Source: a virus
Lineage: Duplodnaviria; Heunggongvirae; Uroviricota; Caudoviricetes
Direction: 5' to 3' (one strand)
IMG/VR virus record: IMGVR_UViG_2778261418_000019
Span: 1 to 22,248 of that record
DNA length: 22,248 nt
The translations under genes and the position numbers were made by a program. Positions 2,349 through 22,248 of this stretch are shown piece by piece. Position 1 is the stretch's first letter; each line of letters opens with the position of its first letter. The notes beneath the pieces are model-generated. The model was given only the letters and a program-made list of their open reading frames with translations, had not been told where the DNA came from and did no database searches.

Positions 2349-2729
2349 ATGAAGCATCTCTTTGCCCTAGCTGTACTTGCTACTGCTACAATCACTACTG
2401 GCTGCACTACTACAATGCCTGCATTTATGAATGAAGCTGTAGTAGGTGATATTAACGGTCGTACACTAGTATTATTCCCCGTAAATGGTGGCAAAGAGTA
2501 TCGCCCACAATTCAGTAGTGATTGTCAGCCAATGCTATTAGGTGAAGAACGCCCATCTACTGGTAACTGTATTATTGCCGCCGCCCGCCTTACAAACATT
2601 CATAGCTACACCGAACATAAAGCCCACGGCCCCCACAAAAACACCACTAAGATAGTTGATCGTTCAAATAATTACGGTACAGAATTTGAGTTATCGAAAC
2701 CAACTAATTATATAGGCGATAATCTGTGA
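2349..2729 (+). CDS. putative lipoprotein (126 aa)
   Basis: AAGGA RBS. The N-terminus MKHLFALAVLATATITTGC is a signal peptide ending in a lipobox-like TTGC. Confidence 0.7.
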   Translation: MKHLFALAVLATATITTGCTTTMPAFMNEAVVGDINGRTLVLFPVNGGKEYRPQFSSDCQPMLLGEERPSTGNCIIAAARLTNIHSYTEHKAHGPHKNTTKIVDRSNNYGTEFELSKPTNYIGDNL

Positions 2730-2815
2730 TGAAGAAAACAATATTTGCCGTACTTTTAGTTATGGGGACTGCATATTACTATGATATAATAAAATATATT
2801 AATCCCACTTATTAA
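2729..2815 (+). CDS. 28-aa hydrophobic mini-protein (MKKTIFAVLLVMGTAYYYDIIKYINPTY)
   Basis: Its ATG overlaps the lipoprotein stop (TGATG at 2727-2731), suggesting translational coupling. The N-terminus is signal- or TM-like. Confidence 0.35.
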   Translation: MKKTIFAVLLVMGTAYYYDIIKYINPTY

Positions 2816-2908: not shown

Positions 2909-3289
2909 ATGAAAAAGATTGTACTGTCTGCATTACTGTTAGTAGCCCCTTCGGTACTGGCAGTAAATGTAATACTCCCTGATGATGGTCTGTATCGTTG
3001 CGGTGTTGAATCGTGGGAACAGGTAGGAAAGCGAGTAGTAAAGACTGGTTATTATGGTATGACTGGTTATGTGAGTATTGATAACCGTGCTGTTAGTGTG
3101 AAGTTTAGGGATGTGAATATTTCATTCAGCCCTGTTTCAAAACTTAAAAGCGGTCGCCTGATGGCCTATGCCGTAGATACTGACCAGTACGATATTATTA
3201 TTAGTGCAATCAATGGTAAAACACAGTATATGGTCAGCAATGAGAATAATCCCGTATTTTTGAACTTCTCCAATTGTATTATTGAATAA
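2909..3289 (+). CDS. secreted protein, paralog A (126 aa from ATG 2909; the track start 2897 is also possible)
   Basis: MKKIVLSALLLVAPSVLA|VN is a type I signal peptide. Cysteines sit near both ends of the mature protein (LYRC ... FSNC). Paralogous to 3299-3685. Confidence 0.7.
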   Translation: MKKIVLSALLLVAPSVLAVNVILPDDGLYRCGVESWEQVGKRVVKTGYYGMTGYVSIDNRAVSVKFRDVNISFSPVSKLKSGRLMAYAVDTDQYDIIISAINGKTQYMVSNENNPVFLNFSNCIIE

Positions 3290-3298
3290 GGAATAGAA

Positions 3299-3685
3299 AT
3301 GAAAAAGGTTATCGTATCTGCATTACTGTTAGTAGCTCCTTCGGTACTGGCTAACACTCACTCTCTACCAGAGCAGGGATTGTATCAATGTGATGTGAAA
3401 GTAGTTGAAATGCTGGGTGATACTCCAGTAGAAAAATCTTCTTATTCTGGTGCAGGTCACGCTAAAGTTAATAGTGATGGTTTTATCCTTAACTTCGGTG
3501 CAATGACTCACGCCACCGGACCAATAGAATCTAATGATTCAATGACAATGGCTTATGATAATGATAGGCAGCGATACTTCCTTGCAACAATGGGTAGTAA
3601 AGAGCAAAACGATATTACTTTTATCTTCTCATTGAGATCTGATACTCGTAATTACTACTTTCAAAACTGCGTTAAAATAAAATAA
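3299..3685 (+). CDS. secreted protein, paralog B (128 aa)
   Basis: AAGGAA RBS. MKKVIVSALLLVAPSVLA|NT is a signal peptide. Cysteines at LYQC ... FQNC. MAY and NC positions are shared with paralog A. Confidence 0.75.
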   Translation: MKKVIVSALLLVAPSVLANTHSLPEQGLYQCDVKVVEMLGDTPVEKSSYSGAGHAKVNSDGFILNFGAMTHATGPIESNDSMTMAYDNDRQRYFLATMGSKEQNDITFIFSLRSDTRNYYFQNCVKIK

Positions 3686-3696
3686 GGGATATATAT

Positions 3697-3906
3697 ATGT
3701 CAGAGAAACTAATTAAAGCAATCCGTAATATTACGGAATATAATATGAGTATTGAGCGTATCATTGTTAGTACCGAAGACCAGCAACACTATTATAGTAT
3801 TAATCCTTATAAGGAAACTGTAATAAAGGTAGCAGACCAATACGGCAAACCAATTGAAGGAGAAGTAGAAATACCACAAATACCGCCATTATTCGATACT
3901 AACTAA
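3697..3906 (+). CDS. hypothetical protein (69 aa)
   Basis: AAGGGA RBS 7 nt upstream. A strong terminator follows directly. Confidence 0.6.
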   Translation: MSEKLIKAIRNITEYNMSIERIIVSTEDQQHYYSINPYKETVIKVADQYGKPIEGEVEIPQIPPLFDTN

Positions 3907-3912
3907 TAATAT

Positions 3913-3940
3913 AGCCCACTAATAAAAGTGGGCTTTTTTA
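3913..3940 (+). terminator. rho-independent terminator
   Basis: AGCCCAC (3913-3919), 8-nt loop, GTGGGCT (3928-3934), then TTTTTT. The stem sequence matches the hairpin at 303-323. Confidence 0.8.
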
Positions 3941-5254: not shown

Positions 5255-7049
5255 CCTAGTCTTCCCCGATGGCGAACTACAAGGGCAACGCGTCAAATTA
5301 TTTGCCTTTCAACATAAGCCCATCAACGATATAGTTAATCCACGTGTACGTAAAGTGGTACTAATGAGTAGTGCTCAACTTCTCAAAACAACGGTACTAC
5401 AGAATAGTATGTACTACTTCCTAGCCAATGATCCGAGTAACATGATCTTCGGTGGTGCTACTGGCGGTACTACAAGTAAATTCCGTACTGGTAAATGGCA
5501 GGCAGTCATAGAAGCATGTCCGGTGCTGAAAAATCTAGTTAGTAATAAGAATGATAAGAACTATACGAACAATGACAAGACACAACAAAATTTAGATGGT
5601 ACGTTTACCTACTTCCTGTCATTGGGTAGTAGTGCTTCCCTTCGTGGCCTTAGTTCGCCTCGCGTATTCCTAGACGAGATATCAAACGTAGACGCAGACG
5701 GGGATGAAGGCAACCCATTGAAGCTAGCCGAGCAGAGGACGAAAGCATTCTCTAACCCCCTTATTATGTGTTGTTCTACACCACTAGATGAACACGACCT
5801 GATTACTCAACAGTACGAGCAAAGTAATAAACAGAAGTTTTATGTACCGTGTCCACACTGTAACCACTCTCACGAAATGGTATTCGAGAATGTTAAATTT
5901 GAATGGAAGATCATAGAAGGTGGTCGCCGTCGTATCCCCGATGCAGATACTGCAAGATTAGAATGCCCAAAATGTAATAATGTAATCACCGAAGCAGAAC
6001 GTGTACGAATGATTCGTAGGGGTGAATGGGTAGTAACAGCACCAGAAGTAACCGATATAATGGGATATCACATATCTAGACTCTATTCCCCCATCAACTC
6101 CATAAAATCAATAGTAGCAGACTTTGCCGAAGCACATTATACCTTTGACCTTGCATCATTCTATAACAACGTCTTAGGACTACCATATATTGATAAAGAG
6201 AATACCGACCATGATTTGGTACTGTTAGAGAACCTACGCGATAGTGAAATAGATATTAATACCGTGCCAGATGATTGTCAGGGAATCGTATTTGGCGTAG
6301 ACCAACAGTTAGACCGTTTGGAAGTTACTACACTAGGAGTAAGTGAAAAGAATCTATATGTACTAGATCATAGAAGCATTTACGCAATTGACTGTACTAA
6401 GATCGAAGCACCAGCATGGAATAAGCTAACGGCCTTTGCAAATACACCATTTAAAACTAAATCGGGTAAACCATTGAAGGTACTGGCAGGATTCGTAGAT
6501 AGTTCGAACGGCAACGCAACTAGTACCGTATATCGCTATTGCAGTAGTTCTACTATCTTTAAACCAATCAAAGGTGGTACGTCTAACTCTAACCCACTAT
6601 TCAAAGATAGTACCGCTGGTGGTCACTCCCTGATTAACCTTAACGTAAACTTAGGCAAATCAAACGTCCGTCAATTACTCAACCGTGCTGTATCCGATAG
6701 TGAAAATAGTAAGGAAGTACAAATACATTTCAGTCATTCAGTACCGGATGATTACTTTATTCAGCTTACTTCCGAGAAGCGAGTAATAAAGGCTGGTGCC
6801 TGGGTATGGGTGAAGAAAGTTAGTTCGGCGAGAAATGAAACCCTTGATTGTCTTAATTACTCGCTTATATGTTTCCAGTGGTATCTATCCAAGTTAGGTA
6901 GTCAACCATTCCGACAACTAAGGGAATACAACGCTAAACAAAAAGAGAAAGCAGGACTAAATAAAGAAGTAAATACAGAAGAAGCACCAACTAAGCCAAC
7001 TCCAAAACGAGTAATAAGGCCGCGTAAAGGTGGTGGATTCTTTAAATAA
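5136..7049 (+). CDS. terL: terminase large subunit, GpA family (637 aa; alternative starts at 5142, 5154 and 5175)
   Basis: Blocks match lambda gpA: LPAEWVESNLVFP vs AVEWADANYYLP, GVDQQLDRLEV vs GIDSQLDRYEM, and RNETLDCLNYSL vs RNEALDCFVYAL. It also has CPHC...CPKC zinc-ribbon cysteines. Confidence 0.93.
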   Translation: MNMREHMKTNYQKMMKILTRAAKSILPPKKQLPAEWVESNLVFPDGELQGQRVKLFAFQHKPINDIVNPRVRKVVLMSSAQLLKTTVLQNSMYYFLANDPSNMIFGGATGGTTSKFRTGKWQAVIEACPVLKNLVSNKNDKNYTNNDKTQQNLDGTFTYFLSLGSSASLRGLSSPRVFLDEISNVDADGDEGNPLKLAEQRTKAFSNPLIMCCSTPLDEHDLITQQYEQSNKQKFYVPCPHCNHSHEMVFENVKFEWKIIEGGRRRIPDADTARLECPKCNNVITEAERVRMIRRGEWVVTAPEVTDIMGYHISRLYSPINSIKSIVADFAEAHYTFDLASFYNNVLGLPYIDKENTDHDLVLLENLRDSEIDINTVPDDCQGIVFGVDQQLDRLEVTTLGVSEKNLYVLDHRSIYAIDCTKIEAPAWNKLTAFANTPFKTKSGKPLKVLAGFVDSSNGNATSTVYRYCSSSTIFKPIKGGTSNSNPLFKDSTAGGHSLINLNVNLGKSNVRQLLNRAVSDSENSKEVQIHFSHSVPDDYFIQLTSEKRVIKAGAWVWVKKVSSARNETLDCLNYSLICFQWYLSKLGSQPFRQLREYNAKQKEKAGLNKEVNTEEAPTKPTPKRVIRPRKGGGFFK

Positions 7050-7059
7050 GGAAAATAAA

Positions 7060-7551
7060 ATGGCAATAGTTCGCAAAGTAACCCTAAGAGGCGATATCTT
7101 TAAAGGCGAGACTATTACATTCGATTACCCCGCAGGGTCAGAAGTAGACTTGATTGATCCAAACGGGGTAAAGACCTCATATACATATCCCTTCCCAGAT
7201 ATTGATACTAGTAACTGGGTAGCGGGTGTATGGACTGCAATTATTAACAGTACCGTAGCATATGGTGTACAACAATTCGAAGTAATAGATCCAACTTCTA
7301 AAGCGTCAGAATATAACGACCTGATGCAAATCATCAAAGATATTGATCAAATCATCATGGATAGAATTAAAGGCGGTGGTGTACTAAGTCAATCAATCCA
7401 AAATAAATCATTAACATATGAAAGTAGCGAAATACTTATGAAACTACGCCCTGTATATGTCAGTCGTGCAAATGATTTACTTTCGGATATGAAAGGCTTC
7501 AATACTGGATGTCCTATCAAATCAATTACTACATTTAGGAGATCTAGATAA
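7060..7551 (+). CDS. head-tail joining protein with a gpW-like C-terminal half and an extra ~85-aa N-terminal domain (163 aa)
   Basis: ATG at 7060 follows AAGGAAA (the track start 7030 is a GTG inside terL). The C-terminal part GGGVLSQSIQNKSLTYESSEILMKLRPVY fits the gpW pattern [28 protein letters not shown]. It sits between terL and the portal, as W does in lambda. Confidence 0.5.
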   Translation: MAIVRKVTLRGDIFKGETITFDYPAGSEVDLIDPNGVKTSYTYPFPDIDTSNWVAGVWTAIINSTVAYGVQQFEVIDPTSKASEYNDLMQIIKDIDQIIMDRIKGGGVLSQSIQNKSLTYESSEILMKLRPVYVSRANDLLSDMKGFNTGCPIKSITTFRRSR

Positions 7552-9047
7552 TGTTCGGATGGAATAAAAAGAAAGTAGAAGAACCTAAACAAAAAGTTTT
7601 AGTACAGAAGCCAGTGAAGCTAATGAAGAATAACCCAATGAAACGAGCAATGACTTCCCTGAATTTGGGATCATCTAGCCCTGTTATCTCATTTGGCTTC
7701 ACTGGTGGTAATCAGGCTGGCAATATTAACGCCATCATTAACCGTACACTACCCGTAATGGTAGCCGTTAGTCGTGAACTATCAATCAAGAACGGTATTG
7801 TAAAAAAATATGTTAGTACGAATAGTGCAGGTGTAACGGGTGCAGATGGCCTATATATTCGCCCTTGTACGCATAGCTCCGACGACGAACAGGTTAACCA
7901 GTCAATCGATAAACAGATTGAAGATGCGTTTTACACGTGGGCCGAAGATCCTAAAGCGTTTTCCCGCTGCGGTACTCTAGATATCAGTACCTTCCAACGT
8001 CTGGTAGAACGTACTCGATCAGTAGATGGTGATTGTTTCATTCGCGTTCACAGTAAGCCAGGAGAGCTACCACAGATTGAGATTATCGATTCTATGCGTA
8101 TCTCGACCTATGAGAACCAATTACTACCAAGTGGTAACTATATTAGTAATGGTATTGAATTTGATATTAATACTAACCGACCTGTAGCTTATTGGGTAAC
8201 ACGTTATAACCCCATCATGTACAACTATATGATTGGTGAGCGTGAACGAGTACCAGCCGACGAGATCCTACACCTATTTCAGCAGGACTATCCAACACAG
8301 CAACGCGGTATTCCAGATGTGCATTCCGGTACTGAAAAGTTAAAAGAGTTAGAGGAATTTATGTCGGCGGCAATTACTTCCCGAAAGGTTGCAGCGTCCG
8401 CAATGGCCTTTATTACTAACCCTGATAGTGATGACGTACAGCTACTGACTGATGATAGTGTATCGTACTATGATCAGGACTATCTAAATCCGGCTGCAAT
8501 CGTAGAACTACAGGCAGGTCAGGATATTAAAACAGTAAACCCAACACAGACTACCGATGGTATACAAGAGTTTATTGATAACCAAATGATGATGATTGCA
8601 ATGGGATTAGATATTACAAAACAATCTCTAACTTCTGATACTAGTAATGCTTCATTCAGTGCTGCAAAGTTAACTGATAAATTACAGCAATCAACATTTA
8701 AAAGCCGTACTAATGCTTTAATTGTATCCGTACTGAAACCTCTTTATATTGCATGGCTAAAATCTGCAATGCTAAATAATAGTACATTAAGCAATTTAAA
8801 TTTTAGTGATTTTAATAAATTAACTCATGCACAATATGTACAGACGCGTCAAATCTCCCTAGATCCATATAAAGACCTTCAAACCGAAGTATTAGCAATT
8901 GATAACGGTTTAAAGAGTAAGGCAATGGTAATTTCGGAGATGGGATACGATCCGGTTATTGTCATGGAAGAAATCAACAAGGAAAATAAAGAAAATGGAA
9001 TTGAACAAGAACCAGACGAGGGCGATCAATCTAACGCAGATCAATAA
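7551..9047 (+). CDS. portal protein, lambda (gpB) family (498 aa)
   Basis: Its size, its position after the terminase and W genes, and its TAATG coupling all fit. Sequence character is typical of lambda-family portals. Confidence 0.88.
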   Translation: MFGWNKKKVEEPKQKVLVQKPVKLMKNNPMKRAMTSLNLGSSSPVISFGFTGGNQAGNINAIINRTLPVMVAVSRELSIKNGIVKKYVSTNSAGVTGADGLYIRPCTHSSDDEQVNQSIDKQIEDAFYTWAEDPKAFSRCGTLDISTFQRLVERTRSVDGDCFIRVHSKPGELPQIEIIDSMRISTYENQLLPSGNYISNGIEFDINTNRPVAYWVTRYNPIMYNYMIGERERVPADEILHLFQQDYPTQQRGIPDVHSGTEKLKELEEFMSAAITSRKVAASAMAFITNPDSDDVQLLTDDSVSYYDQDYLNPAAIVELQAGQDIKTVNPTQTTDGIQEFIDNQMMMIAMGLDITKQSLTSDTSNASFSAAKLTDKLQQSTFKSRTNALIVSVLKPLYIAWLKSAMLNNSTLSNLNFSDFNKLTHAQYVQTRQISLDPYKDLQTEVLAIDNGLKSKAMVISEMGYDPVIVMEEINKENKENGIEQEPDEGDQSNADQ

Positions 9048-10857
9048 TGCAATTGATGAAAACGATAGAACTGTAGAACTCTCTTTTGCCTCCGAAATTC
9101 CAGTAGTACGCGATATTAAAGGGACTCTCTATAATGAGATCCTTTTATGCAGTCCTGAAAACGTAGATTTAAGCCGTCTAAATGACGGTGCACCTGTACT
9201 AGTAGAACATGATGCAATGCGTCAAGTTGGTATAGTTGAAAATGCTCGCGTAGATATGGATAAAGTATGTCGTGCTACTGTACGTTTTAGTGCTTTGGGT
9301 ACTGCAAATACTATCTTCGGAATGATCGTAGAAGGTATTCGCCCTAAAGTATCAGTAGGTTATAACATCCTAGATTACTATCTAGATGGTAATGATCTAA
9401 TCGTTTCCAAATGGCAACCATACGAAGTATCAAGCGTATCCACTCCCGCAGATAATAGCGTAGGTGTAGGAAGATCACTAAATAGTAATGATGAAATTAC
9501 TTTAGAGGATCAACCCCAAATGGAACCAGAACAAAAAGAAGAACTAGTACAGGAAGTAAAAATTATTGAAAAAGCACCACAAGAAGAAGTGCAATCAGAA
9601 GTAGTTGAAGAATCCGTAGTAGTCGAAAGTGAAGAATCAGTAGAAGTAGTAGAAGTTGAAGTAATCGAGGAAGTACAAGAAGATGTACAACCGGAATTAG
9701 TAGAAGAACGTTCTATTGCAGTAACTGATATTCAAGAAAGTATAAATAAAGAAGTAGAAGCAAATCGTATTCGCGAACTTCAATCTATTTCTTCGGTACT
9801 AGGTGTTAGTACCGAAGAAGCAATTAAAAACGGTGTAAGCGTAGAAGACTTTAAACGCTCACTACTAAATAAAGATAACAAATCAATTGATAAGGAAATC
9901 AAACAAATGGATAAAAAATCTCTAATCGCCGAAGGTCTACGTAGTCTAAAAGGCGAAGCAAACGAACTAGCAACCTTCGAAAAAGGTACACGCGGTTATA
10001 ATGCAGATCTTAATGCTATGGTACGTTCTACTGCCGATACCACTTCTACCGTCACTGCCGCAGGTCTTGTAAAAGAAGAATTAGCAGATGCCTATATTCG
10101 CCAACTACTTGCACGTACCGTACTAGGTGAACTACCAGTTACCGTCTTTGGTGGTCTTGCTGGTCGTGGTAATTTCTCTATCCCACGTGCAAAAGGTATG
10201 AACCCAGTAGCACGTTTCTATGGTGAAGATGAAGCAGTATCCGATGGCTTCGAAACCTTCGATAAGATCACTCTAAAGCCTCGCATGTTCGCAGCAGGTA
10301 TCAAGATCACTAAAGCAATGCTACTAAGCAACGCAGCTACCGAACGTTATGTAACTGATGAGCTACTACGCCAATGTTCTAACGGTCTAGAATCAGCAGT
10401 ATTTACACAAATCGCTAATACCGTTCCAGTACAGGAAACCGCAGCAGTAGGTACAGTAACCGAAGCAGACGTACAGAAAGCAATTGAGGCACTAGGTGTA
10501 GCAAACGTTGATATCAACCGTTGTGTTGCAATCGTCCACCCTTCTATGCTCGCTAAACTACGTCAGTATGCAATTTTGGGTAACACCAGTGCAGTAAGTG
10601 CTGTAGCAGGCCATCGCTATGATATGTGGTTGTGTGACGAAGTACGCGTAATTGAATCTACTTTCGTAGCAGCAGATGCAATTCTAATTGGTGACTTCTC
10701 CGAACTAATCTTTACTAACTGGAACGAAGGCCAAGAGCTGGATTTCGACGATACTACCTACCGTGCAGCACAAACTATCGCAATCCGTAGCTTCCAGTAC
10801 CTTGATGTAGCTATTGCACACGAAGAATCATTCGTACAAATCAAACTAAAAGCATAA
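8995..10857 (+). CDS. fused prohead protease (HK97/S78-type), acidic linker with scaffold-like region, and HK97-fold major capsid protein (620 aa from ATG 8995)
   Basis: The N-terminal part has PVLVEHD...KVSVGY...YEVSSVSTPAD, the protease His and Ser blocks. Bases 9490-9710 encode an E/V-rich linker. The ANRIRELQSI...AIKNGVSVEDFKRSLL motif is scaffold- or delta-like. The C-terminal ~290 aa have HK97 MCP character (AILIGDFSELIFTNWNEGQELDFDD...IAIRSFQYLDVAI). The track start 8959 is a TTG. Confidence 0.85.
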   Translation: MELNKNQTRAINLTQINNAIDENDRTVELSFASEIPVVRDIKGTLYNEILLCSPENVDLSRLNDGAPVLVEHDAMRQVGIVENARVDMDKVCRATVRFSALGTANTIFGMIVEGIRPKVSVGYNILDYYLDGNDLIVSKWQPYEVSSVSTPADNSVGVGRSLNSNDEITLEDQPQMEPEQKEELVQEVKIIEKAPQEEVQSEVVEESVVVESEESVEVVEVEVIEEVQEDVQPELVEERSIAVTDIQESINKEVEANRIRELQSISSVLGVSTEEAIKNGVSVEDFKRSLLNKDNKSIDKEIKQMDKKSLIAEGLRSLKGEANELATFEKGTRGYNADLNAMVRSTADTTSTVTAAGLVKEELADAYIRQLLARTVLGELPVTVFGGLAGRGNFSIPRAKGMNPVARFYGEDEAVSDGFETFDKITLKPRMFAAGIKITKAMLLSNAATERYVTDELLRQCSNGLESAVFTQIANTVPVQETAAVGTVTEADVQKAIEALGVANVDINRCVAIVHPSMLAKLRQYAILGNTSAVSAVAGHRYDMWLCDEVRVIESTFVAADAILIGDFSELIFTNWNEGQELDFDDTTYRAAQTIAIRSFQYLDVAIAHEESFVQIKLKA

Positions 10858-11599: not shown

Positions 11600-15334
<3,735 letters not shown>

Positions 15335-20066: not shown

Positions 20067-20458
20067 TGGCAAATTTACATAATGAAATAATGAAACATAT
20101 TGAAGATGCACTAGCTAACCCTTATTCCTTCGGTACTAATGATTGTAATATTGTTGCCTTACGAGTAGTTGATACTATTAAAGGTACTAAATGGTCAGAA
20201 GTAGCGGAATACTCATCTTTAAAAGAGGGAGTAGCACAACTACATGAACTAGGATTTAACAGTACACAAGATATTATCATTCAGGAATGTACACAGGTTG
20301 AAATCCCAATTGATGGTGATATTTGGCTAGATCCAGATAACCCATTGCTAATGGCAGTAGTGGTATCTGGTCGCCTATTGGGTGTCAATGATGAACATGA
20401 CGCTTTCGTACTAATCAATAAAAAGAAAAACGGAACTTACTATAGGAGTAACAAATAA
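20066..20458 (+). CDS. gpK-position protein, possible NlpC/P60-like (130 aa)
   Basis: TAATG-coupled ATG at 20066 with a GGAAGA RBS. GTNDCNIVALRVVD followed by DGDIWLD...MAVVVSG loosely fits the cysteine peptidase pattern. Confidence 0.4.
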   Translation: MANLHNEIMKHIEDALANPYSFGTNDCNIVALRVVDTIKGTKWSEVAEYSSLKEGVAQLHELGFNSTQDIIIQECTQVEIPIDGDIWLDPDNPLLMAVVVSGRLLGVNDEHDAFVLINKKKNGTYYRSNK

Positions 20459-22248
20459 TGGGTAGTGGTGGTGGAATATTCGGAGCACTAATAACGGCGG
20501 TCATGGTCGCGGCAGCAGTCTACACGGCTGGTACTTCTACACTATTAGTAGCGGCCTATTGGGGAGCGGCAGCAGGAGCACTATCATTAGTCGCTACCAG
20601 TATGCTAGGTCAGGTAGGAGGGCTTACGGGATACTCCGATGTAGCCAGTGCATTACAGCGTTCTACAAGTCCTACAAGTGGTTTACCTGTCATATATGGC
20701 GGTAGTGCACCACATAAAAACGGTGTATCTGGTGGCAGCTTCATTCTAACTGGTGTAATCAATAACTGGTATAACGTAAAAGATGATAGCTCTCAATATT
20801 TCTTTAGTGAGCAAGTCGTGTCAATGACAGGTACGGCAAAACATATTGAACAAATTTACATGGACGATGAACCAGTATTAGCAGTACCGATAACTACAGA
20901 TGGCGTAGTACCGAAAGCTAGTATCGTGTCTAAATTCCAACCGTATCTACAATTGGAAGTTAGATTTGGTGGTAATTACACAACCACAAAAACATTAGCA
21001 AAACAATATGCTGGGCCGAAATGGACTGATAAATTCTTAGGGAAAGGTGTAGTATCTATTTCATCGGTAATCTATAAAACCGAAGATTCCACAATGGATG
21101 GTATCCTCACTAATGATAACTTCAATATGACCGTAGAAATGAAAGGACAGGTAATCTATGATTTTAATAGTGGTACTAATTTCGCTACTTCATGCCCTGC
21201 AAGTCAGGTTTATGATTATCTCGTTAATACTACCTATGGTCTGGGACTAGAACCCGCTTTAATCAATCAGCAATCATTCTCTGAAGTTAGTCAATGGTGT
21301 TTCCAACAGGGACTAACTTCCAATATTAGTATGTCTTATCAGTCAACATATAAAGAGAATATAGAATCAATTCTACAGGCTTGTGGCGGTATTCTTTATG
21401 TACACGCAGGACAAGTTTGTATAACTGTAGACCGTAAAACTCTATCAGTACATACCTATGATGAATCAAATATTATTGGTGATGCAAGCGTATCTACTTC
21501 GGGTAATAATGACTACTATAATACAATTGATGCAACCTATACCGCAGTTAAGAACCAGTATACAAGCGATGTATTGCGTATTCCTTCGGATATTAGCACG
21601 GATGAAGCAATTAAGAGTGATGGTCTAGTTATTACCCTAGCACGTGATTTTAAAGCCGTATACGATGAAGAAGTAGTAGCACGACTAGTAAACGCCGAAC
21701 TACGTAAAACTAAATTCAGTCTACGTACTGTAACCTTTACCAGTGCCGAAGCGTGGGATCTCAAAGTATGGGATAGTATTACTGTTAATATCAAGGAATT
21801 GATGGTAGCTGGTAAGTTTAAGGTATTGAGTAAATCAGTAGCAACAGATCAACAGAACGTAGGCTTCTGTACTGTTACTTGTCTTGAATATCCTGATGCA
21901 ATCTTTGACGGTACAGATCCGGGTGTATGGAGTCCTGGCGGTGTTATCGGTGGTGGGTCAGCACGTATTGTACAACCTCCTACTAATCTAGTAATTACCC
22001 GCAAAGGTGATATTGTATCTGGCTCAGTAGTTAATATGTCGTGGACTGCTTCACCTTCTAGTAATGTTCGTGGTTACTATACATACTATCGCAAAACAGG
22101 TACAACCAACTGGACAGCAGCAGGTCAGACAGTACCGACACAGTTAGAGTTTGATTTATACGGACTAGATCCAGATACAAACTGTGACTTTGCAGTAGCT
22201 GCATATATGGATTTGCCCCTATATTTCCAGACACCTGTTATCACTTAA
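20458..22248 (+). CDS. tail tip / central fibre protein, gpJ-like with a gpI-like N-terminus (596 aa)
   Basis: The N-terminus GGGIFGALITAVMVAAAVYTAGTSTLLVAAYWGAAAGAL...GLPVIYGG resembles the lambda gpI C-terminal region. The middle matches J-like blocks. An FN3-like domain (PPTNLVITRKG...YYTYYRKTGTTNWT...FAVAAY) lies at the C-terminus. TAA falls exactly at the window end. Confidence 0.8.
   Translation: MGSGGGIFGALITAVMVAAAVYTAGTSTLLVAAYWGAAAGALSLVATSMLGQVGGLTGYSDVASALQRSTSPTSGLPVIYGGSAPHKNGVSGGSFILTGVINNWYNVKDDSSQYFFSEQVVSMTGTAKHIEQIYMDDEPVLAVPITTDGVVPKASIVSKFQPYLQLEVRFGGNYTTTKTLAKQYAGPKWTDKFLGKGVVSISSVIYKTEDSTMDGILTNDNFNMTVEMKGQVIYDFNSGTNFATSCPASQVYDYLVNTTYGLGLEPALINQQSFSEVSQWCFQQGLTSNISMSYQSTYKENIESILQACGGILYVHAGQVCITVDRKTLSVHTYDESNIIGDASVSTSGNNDYYNTIDATYTAVKNQYTSDVLRIPSDISTDEAIKSDGLVITLARDFKAVYDEEVVARLVNAELRKTKFSLRTVTFTSAEAWDLKVWDSITVNIKELMVAGKFKVLSKSVATDQQNVGFCTVTCLEYPDAIFDGTDPGVWSPGGVIGGGSARIVQPPTNLVITRKGDIVSGSVVNMSWTASPSSNVRGYYTYYRKTGTTNWTAAGQTVPTQLEFDLYGLDPDTNCDFAVAAYMDLPLYFQTPVIT

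Follow-up and report, generated by a model that had tools for sequence, protein, structure and literature searches.

The window analysed here, i.e. the whole stretch of 22,248 nucleotides of the IMG/VR virus record IMGVR_UViG_2778261418_000019 (Caudoviricetes), contains two adjacent genes, designated A and B, which encode small, putatively secreted proteins with a nearly identical signal-peptide DNA segment and strongly diverged mature parts. The tandem probably arose by a non-allelic crossover at a common TCTGCA hexamer within the signal-peptide sequence, that is, by ordinary phage mosaicism in a hitherto undescribed protein family. The positions of A and B are referred to as slot 1 and slot 2, and related loci are designated by L numbers. 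The elements that carry the argument are the following.

2909..3289, plus strand: gene A, the slot-1 barrel allele (126 amino acids: 18-residue putative Sec signal and 108-residue predicted beta-barrel, with C31 and C123).
2909..2962, plus strand: signal-peptide coding segment of A, regarded as part of the conserved backbone; identity is 100% in L002, L003, and L014 and 96% in L006, though the mature parts differ.
2927..2961, plus strand: repeat copy 1, 35 nucleotides.
3285..3322, plus strand: chimeric junction composed of the stop codon of A, the ribosome-binding site, and the first eight codons of B; it ends at TCTGCA, the presumed crossover point.
3299..3685, plus strand: gene B, the slot-2 barrel allele (128 amino acids: 18-residue putative Sec signal and 110-residue predicted barrel, with C31 and C124).
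3317..3351, plus strand: repeat copy 2, 35 nucleotides; the sequence from 3317 through the stop codon of B does not differ from the slot-1 B of L025.

The two copies of the 35-nucleotide repeat differ by a single synonymous C/T exchange in codon 13. They are the only sites of the window that match the 35-mer with at most three mismatches; none was found in 100 dinucleotide-preserving shuffles, and the number of matches expected by chance is zero. The near-identical signal DNA described in an earlier sequence-only reading of this stretch is present as claimed. With a repeat finder, the pair grows to 53 nucleotides of 89% identity (2909-2961 and 3299-3351), which represents the entire signal-peptide coding part. 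The genes are arranged head to tail with a gap of 9 nucleotides, and the signal residues are MKKIVLSALLLVAPSVLA in A and MKKVIVSALLLVAPSVLA in B. According to the same reading, the mature proteins share little beyond three short strings. This is not the case: BLASTP of mature A against mature B gave 24% identity across 106 amino acids with an E-value of 8e-10, an alignment that marks A and B as full-length homologues. One of the proposed strings, an internal MAY, is not a family motif, as it is neither aligned nor conserved in other members. Nucleotide identity between A and B amounts to 87% in the signal (18 codons) versus 40% in the mature region, and identical degenerate residues are specified by the same codon in 12 of 14 cases in the signal versus 6 of 20 in the mature region (Fisher p = 0.002). 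Synonymous divergence (pS) is 0.26 in the signal and 0.70, i.e. saturated, in the mature region. Judged by these values, the signal DNA is either much younger than the remainder of the gene or constrained at the nucleotide level.

The genomic context helps to decide between these possibilities. The window derives from a prophage of about 33 kb, rare in E. coli, that is integrated in yegD by a serine recombinase. E. coli NZ_CM151386 contains a prophage of about 33 kb that shares 97-99% identity with the window; this prophage is located in yegD, adjoins a large serine recombinase gene, and carries lambda-type terminase, portal, protease-capsid, and tail genes as well as a GH24 endolysin gene at its far right end. 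Among 5426 complete E. coli genomes, two matched the region; a phage collection gave no match to it in blastn, and megablast of the whole window matched only the end of an insertion sequence (IS). A and B are located between a lipoprotein gene followed by a 28-amino-acid hydrophobic open reading frame (ORF) on one side and the terminase genes on the other. In sister prophages with conserved flanks, the slot holds different barrel alleles, 40-70% identical to A, and the cargo 3' of these alleles is a 152-amino-acid lipoprotein gene, a gene for 157, 218, or 232 amino acids, or a gene for an OLD-family nuclease. The region thus lies at a fixed place between conserved modules and varies in its genes, as is characteristic of an accessory cassette. 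Sequence comparison assigns the occupants of slot 1 to several very old alleles, with at least four classes (A, L002, L006/L008, and B types), whose mature parts are 24-55% identical.

When loci were compared with the window in three successive segments (upstream 180 nucleotides, 54-nucleotide signal, and next 180 nucleotides), the identities were 0.98, 1.00, and 0.70 for L002; 0.82, 0.96, and 0.59 for L006; and 0.53, 0.72, and 0.58 for L008. In these alignments, signal identity follows flank identity and identity drops sharply at the signal end, the signal DNA being identical wherever the backbone is identical. Further breakpoints are found within the gene: the L003 allele is of the A type until about alignment column 72 and of the L002 type beyond, and the L014 allele combines an L002-type leader with an A-type body. 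In most of these E. coli prophages (L008 and L009 excepted), the signal DNA would therefore simply be part of a near-identical backbone, and alleles would be replaced by recombination with the left boundary at the signal/mature junction and additional breakpoints inside the gene, so that every allele would become fused to the same signal DNA.

The history of B can be traced more precisely. Its 90%-identity cluster includes variants with the slot-1 N-terminus MKKIVL, one of them with the upstream MDEF codons, and in L024-L026, slot 1 holds B as the only barrel gene, with the lipoprotein gene immediately before it and the same ORF of 69 or 73 amino acids behind it. Beyond the first 54 nucleotides, window B and the L025 allele agree at all 333 positions, and the only five differences are located in codons 4-6; from codon 7 to the stop codon, window B is base for base identical to slot-1 B. 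The 5' end of B is chimeric: in the 38 nucleotides from -14 to +24, 33 positions agree with the beginning of the L003 slot-2 lipoprotein gene versus 22 that match A, and in the 30 nucleotides from +25 to +54, 28 match A versus 9 that match the L003 gene. The switch falls at the TCTGCA hexamer common to A, B, and the L003 slot-2 gene. As B is found alone in slot 1 and the tandem copy carries this chimeric 38-nucleotide start, a non-allelic crossover at TCTGCA is the probable origin of the tandem. We infer the direction and the parents of this crossover as follows: one parent would have carried B in slot 1, like L025, and the other, like L003, an A-type gene with the slot-2 lipoprotein gene behind it, the 5' end of the lipoprotein gene (ATGAAAAARGTTATC..TCTGCA) resembling the barrel signal sequence. 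Exchange at TCTGCA (codons 7-8) would have joined the flank, the signal, A, the linker, and MKKVIVSA to LLLVAPSVLA and the remainder of B, and the repeated 35-mer would be the footprint of this event.

A further observation concerns the linker TAAGGAATARAAATG (3285-3298 in the window and 5391-5404 in L003), which is present in different reading frames at the two loci. The TAA within it terminates gene A in the window; in L003, the same bases encode the final K-E of the upstream gene, the stop codon of which follows later. This difference in frame suggests that a second recombination junction may lie where A ends.

For mosaic accessory regions, the modular theory of lambdoid phages provides a general precedent. 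Relaxed homologous recombination between temperate phages has been documented (PMC3945230). The mosaic "moron" regions of such phages, which are shuffled by relaxed or short-homology recombination, likewise consist of variable genes between conserved modules with a terminator at the end, and likewise show sharp identity breaks at gene or domain boundaries and short conserved linkers at the junctions. Unlike in the usual moron regions, one junction here lies inside the signal-peptide coding sequence, and the non-allelic partner was apparently a second signal-like gene start, which resulted in a tandem of old alleles. The mechanism as such is ordinary phage mosaicism with a junction placed neatly inside the signal sequence; what is new is the protein family.

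Two points weigh against a crossover as the origin of the tandem. A parent with a full-length A, including its own C-terminus, followed by the slot-2 lipoprotein gene was not found, full-length A preceding B in every sampled contig, and the switch rests on 38 plus 30 nucleotides, over which a short conversion tract is not strictly separable from a crossover. The sequence-only reading had instead considered gene conversion or constraint on the export signal, and in its first form this amounts to a local tandem duplication, divergence of the mature parts, and repeated conversion between the neighbours that kept the signal homogeneous. Such a history, to which the direct orientation of the copies at a distance of 390 bp, the 53 common nucleotides of 89% identity, and a synonymous divergence of the signal far below that of the remaining gene would lend themselves, is nevertheless quite unlikely. 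The single-copy slot-1 B of L024-L026 is identical to window B from codon 7 to the stop codon and departs from A by the same two synonymous changes (GCT and GGCT); the B signal therefore matches its own allele lineage and not the neighbouring A. Moreover, the 5' 38 nucleotides of B come from a different gene start, and the flanks, with about 40% identity, offer no homology to initiate repeated conversion. A recent local duplication is also argued against by the fact that mature A and B are as far apart from each other as either is from membrane-anchored homologues of other genera (22-27% identity). Recombination, and not conservation by descent, hence does account for the identical signal DNA, but it was probably not conversion between diverging tandem duplicates.

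The family to which A and B belong is small, confined to this prophage lineage, uncharacterized, and annotated by no database. For B, word-indexed searches of 5.8 billion proteins retrieved nothing but near-identical copies, and for A they retrieved eight relatives with 45-98% identity; together these form nine 90%-identity clusters (P0001-P0009), and all with a source name are from E. coli. When 1.84 billion cluster representatives were searched exhaustively with a profile, the family gained two distant members, P0010 (E-value 1e-7) and P0011 (2e-4), which possess a transmembrane anchor and a linker in place of the cleavable signal and are encoded in the same slot upstream of the terminase genes in related prophages, one of them in Enterobacter hormaechei. 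The residues G27, Y29, C31, V33, G40, G53, F120, and C123 are invariant across all family members, and the two cysteines are thus retained in all 11 members, P0010 and P0011 among them. Pfam, PHROGs, NCBIfam, and PADLOC were scanned with A, B, the products of adjacent genes, and the distant homologues and yielded nothing meaningful, and the family profile retrieved from the PDB sequences only weak matches to botulinum haemagglutinin HA33 (E-value 0.005, per-domain 0.12), a likeness put down to chance or composition. A scan for the exact signal-DNA pattern returned one IMG/VR contig with the same tandem and none of the GTDB representative genomes or JGI metagenomes; a search for related loci seeded with P0010 or P0011 found nothing, and in the literature nothing specific was found on prophage-encoded lysozyme inhibitors or on this family. 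Two further candidates were rejected as members. One is the upstream lipoprotein, which was tested and does not belong to the family. The other is a 113-amino-acid secreted protein of L020 (Enterobacter hormaechei; 7678-8019) with a Cys bracket of its own (WYC...LLC), which showed no similarity to the family in hhalign; its gene is located directly upstream of, and overlaps, that of the membrane-anchored barrel homologue (8001-8495).

The signal peptides of A and B have the same layout, i.e. MKK, IVLSALLLVAP, and SVLA, with valine at -3 and alanine at -1, and by inspection they display the basic n-region, hydrophobic core, and small residues at -3 and -1 of Sec substrates. Both proteins are thus predicted to be exported by the Sec system to the periplasm, and the distant homologues, in which a transmembrane anchor and a linker replace the signal, fit a periplasmic domain. 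A confident AlphaFold2 model of A, based on a ten-sequence alignment, has a mean predicted local distance difference test score (pLDDT) of 86 and a predicted template modelling score of 0.77 and consists of nine antiparallel strands with C31 in the first (27-39) and C123 in the last (118-125). The model of B, of lower confidence (pLDDT 70), has the same order of nine strands and its cysteines likewise in the first and last. The domain of about 108 amino acids is accordingly predicted to be a periplasmic antiparallel beta-barrel, which would be closed by a C31-C123 disulfide linking the first strand to the last. The idea that A and B are exported paralogues whose small domain is bracketed by cysteines is thus supported. 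Foldseek found no match below an E-value of 0.02 in the PDB and only uncharacterized phage proteins and lipoproteins with E-values around 1e-3 in BFVD.

A disulfide between the first and last strands is common to the bacterial lysozyme inhibitors MliC and PliC and to the proteins ACP and PhiA (PMC2267010, PMC5507604, PMC8334348), and the sequence-only reading had indicated a weak link to the MliC/PliC group. The putatively exported, Cys-bracketed domain and its predicted PliC-like fold stand, whereas membership in that group does not. With hmmscan, the MliC/PliC domain PF09864 was detected neither in A and B (E-values up to 1) nor in six relatives (up to 10), although all true MliC homologues carry it, and hhalign of the family against an MliC/PliC alignment, which was shallow and comprised enterobacterial sequences plus two PDB fragments, gave a probability of 27% over the N-terminal 34 columns only, that is, the signal peptide and Y-x-C. 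The MliC motifs that contact lysozyme, SxSGAxY in loop 4 and YxxxTKG (PMC5507604), occur at no conserved position of the family alignment. The MliC strings YQCDE and SASGARY given in that reading are correct, but the SYSGAG of B (residues 48-53), which had been likened to SASGARY, lies in the beta2-beta3 loop instead of loop 4 and is not conserved in the family, A having GYYGMTG at this place. MliC and PliC (PF09864, COG3895; PDB 3oe3, 2f09, 3f6z, and 4mir) have eight strands and 85-90 amino acids, in contrast to nine strands in the model and about 108 amino acids here; furthermore, the barrel genes are phage-borne and highly polymorphic and show no sequence or profile similarity to the inhibitors. 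The family shares its general architecture with MliC/PliC and is not a member of it, but it may be a very remote relative. Neisseria ACP (PDB 6gq4; PMC5507604) and Brucella PhiA (PDB 7dpy; PMC8334348) share the predicted fold and disulfide, also without the MliC/PliC motifs, and in them the scaffold is reused with other binding surfaces.

That the barrels are nonetheless genuine MliC/PliC/ACP-type inhibitors, which by lysogenic conversion would shield the lysogen from animal c-type lysozyme, is quite improbable. Besides the missing Pfam and profile similarity, the missing contact motifs, and the ninth strand in a model about 20 residues longer than MliC or PliC, E. coli already possesses MliC, Ivy, and PliG. 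PhiA, proposed on genetic evidence to act on a phage-lysozyme-like autolysin, has the same fold without the motif and in vitro bound neither lysozyme nor SagA, its proposed partner (PMC8334348), which serves as a warning.

The age of the alleles also bears on how their mature parts diverged. The sequence-only reading suggested diversifying selection on the mature domain, and an arms race with rapid divergence under positive selection might be supposed from the presence of several very different alleles in backbones otherwise 92-98% identical, with two of them kept in tandem, a pattern expected under frequency-dependent selection. Such an arms race is very unlikely. Between allele classes, pS is 0.65-0.84 and therefore saturated, so that the divergence of A and B is old and not accelerated. 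Where the ratio of nonsynonymous to synonymous change (dN/dS) could be estimated, it was 0.11 (L006-L008), 0.34 (A-L014), and 0.48 (L002-L003), the latter two pairs differing mainly via recombined segments; none of these pairs showed a sign of positive selection or accelerated amino-acid change, and B orthologues share 95-100% identity. Old alleles that are maintained over long periods and shuffled would represent a process distinct from one with dN/dS above 1, and the sequence data fit old allele lineages that are under purifying selection and shuffled by recombination. A superficially similar pattern is known from cone-snail toxins, which combine a signal that is near-constant even at silent sites, a preserved Cys framework, and a very variable mature part, and in such families it is attributed to duplication and accelerated evolution of the mature region. 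In the present case, by contrast, alleles appear to be shuffled onto a common backbone, and dN/dS is below 1.

Finally, preservation of the signal DNA by selection at the nucleotide or mRNA level (translation-initiation structure, Sec-targeting codon choice, or an embedded regulatory site), which would fit the identical codons at 12 of 14 identical residues and a 35-mer that is exact or one base off in most E. coli loci, is extremely improbable, because signal identity follows flank identity, because natural variants S7Y and A13S occur in the signal of B, and because L008 and L009, with a barrel of the L006 lineage, have a signal changed both in protein (MKKIVLALIFIVPSVLA) and at synonymous sites that accompanies an unrelated upstream flank. 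In the comparison of L006 with L008, the mature part is 87% identical at the nucleotide level (dN/dS 0.11), whereas the signal is only 75% identical (pS 0.59); the signals thus drifted while the mature part was kept, which argues against an intrinsic constraint on the signal DNA and leaves the constraint on the export signal proposed earlier unsupported.

The remaining elements of the cassette are as follows.

2349..2729, plus strand: conserved gene for a 126-amino-acid lipoprotein (MKHLFALAVLATATITTGC...), with ORF and lipobox recognizable in the sequence; left backbone flank of the variable cassette region.
2729..2815, plus strand: 28-amino-acid hydrophobic ORF (MKKTIFAVLLVMGTAYYYDIIKYINPTY), the ATG of which overlaps the lipoprotein stop codon; conserved left flank.
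3697..3906, plus strand: 69-amino-acid ORF travelling with B, found 3' of B in the tandem and where B is alone (69 or 73 amino acids).
3913..3934, plus strand: hairpin resembling an intrinsic terminator and closing the cassette, with an 8-bp stem containing five GC pairs followed by a T run (consensus scan only).

The lipoprotein gene is located upstream of the barrel gene in most of the E. coli sister loci examined and was not called in L008. Neither its product nor that of the 69-amino-acid ORF had a family match in the library scans. The 28-amino-acid ORF is 98% conserved in L002, L003, and L014; in L006, its stop codon is lost and the ORF is extended to 55 amino acids, reaching the start of the barrel gene. 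In L008, a gene on the minus strand (5795-7615), directly after the barrel gene and in opposite orientation, encodes an OLD-family nuclease (AAA_15/AAA_21 and OLD-like TOPRIM domains), which points to the variable region as a probable hotspot for defence genes as well.

Several other features of the prophage deserve mention. The last 41 nucleotides of the window (22208-22248) are the end of an IS element, which we take to be the IS2 terminal repeat; in three E. coli phage records, a sequence 100% identical to them is labelled as transposase InsD. The window is homologous to the intact sister prophage only as far as 22207, within a long tail gene starting at 20458, and the tail gene is therefore probably disrupted in this copy. 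A 1244-amino-acid ORF (11600-15334) between the head-tail joining genes and the tail tube gene, whose sister copy is annotated as "tail fiber domain-containing" in RefSeq, is unusual for such a phage in both position and size; it contains five in-register 33-nucleotide tandem units (14274-14459) and a 169-nucleotide direct repeat (12297 and 12690, 82% identical). The major capsid gene (8959-10857) is long, encoding 632 amino acids, and the presence of Peptidase_S78 and Phage_capsid domains in the homologues of L018 and L020 indicates a protease-capsid fusion. At the far right end, L022 carries a gene on the minus strand (2076-2528), opposite to the structural genes and adjoining a GIY-YIG nuclease gene, for a 150-amino-acid GH24 phage lysozyme without a signal sequence. 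This is the sole recognizable lysis gene of the prophage, no holin or spanin being recognized. A lysis role for the barrels, considered because of their position upstream of the terminase genes, was rejected in view of this distant endolysin and of the dissimilarity between the barrel and spanins.

With respect to function, it is possible, if doubtful, that the barrels are periplasmic binding or inhibitor modules directed against an envelope-acting protein. Candidate targets would be peptidoglycan hydrolases (phage tail lysins or lysozymes, for instance) or another component of an incoming phage or toxin. The barrels would then represent prophage cargo for superinfection exclusion or host protection, with alleles differing in specificity. 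This proposal is based on the predicted export, the disulfide-clamped barrel, the tethered variants of other genera, the accessory region, which in a sister prophage holds a defence nuclease, and the many divergent alleles. The leading guess is inhibition of an envelope-attacking enzyme, which might be a tail lysin, by analogy with T4 Spackle, a periplasmic inhibitor of tail lysozyme (PMC7677548), or a lysozyme. Spackle, T5 Llp, and Ltp of Streptococcus phages (PMC3952083), which are likewise small exported proteins or lipoproteins of phages or prophages, act in the envelope against incoming phages; for the barrels, such exclusion is a hypothesis, and the known proteins have other folds (Spackle is helical) and no homology to the family. 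Three points count against a role as inhibitory cargo: export and disulfide are deduced from the sequence and a predicted structure, the 14 promoter-like sites found compare with 11.5 expected from shuffles and hence say little for expression from the prophage, and with no surface motif conserved across the family and the MliC/PliC contact motifs absent, nothing points directly to lysozyme. A bolder and rather unlikely extension would see the slot as a "periplasmic immunity cassette" of old, diverged MliC/PliC-like barrels, each neutralizing a different envelope-attacking enzyme, which may include phage tail lysins, bacteriocin or type VI muramidases, and host lysozymes, with the signal sequence serving as a portable patch of homology for swapping and stacking specificities. 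If true, this would define a new class of phage-encoded inhibitors and an export signal that doubles as a recombination linker.

Neighbouring genes with a conserved signal and divergent bodies can be misread as a product of gene conversion and diversifying selection, while in this prophage they probably represent two old alleles joined by a crossover. The analysis also defines a small, unannotated family of prophage-encoded proteins, predicted to be exported, disulfide-clamped beta-barrels, whose nearest structural neighbours are bacterial lysozyme inhibitors. If these barrels inhibit peptidoglycan hydrolases of phages or the host, they would constitute a new type of prophage-encoded envelope defence; otherwise, the locus would be an ordinary mosaic accessory region.

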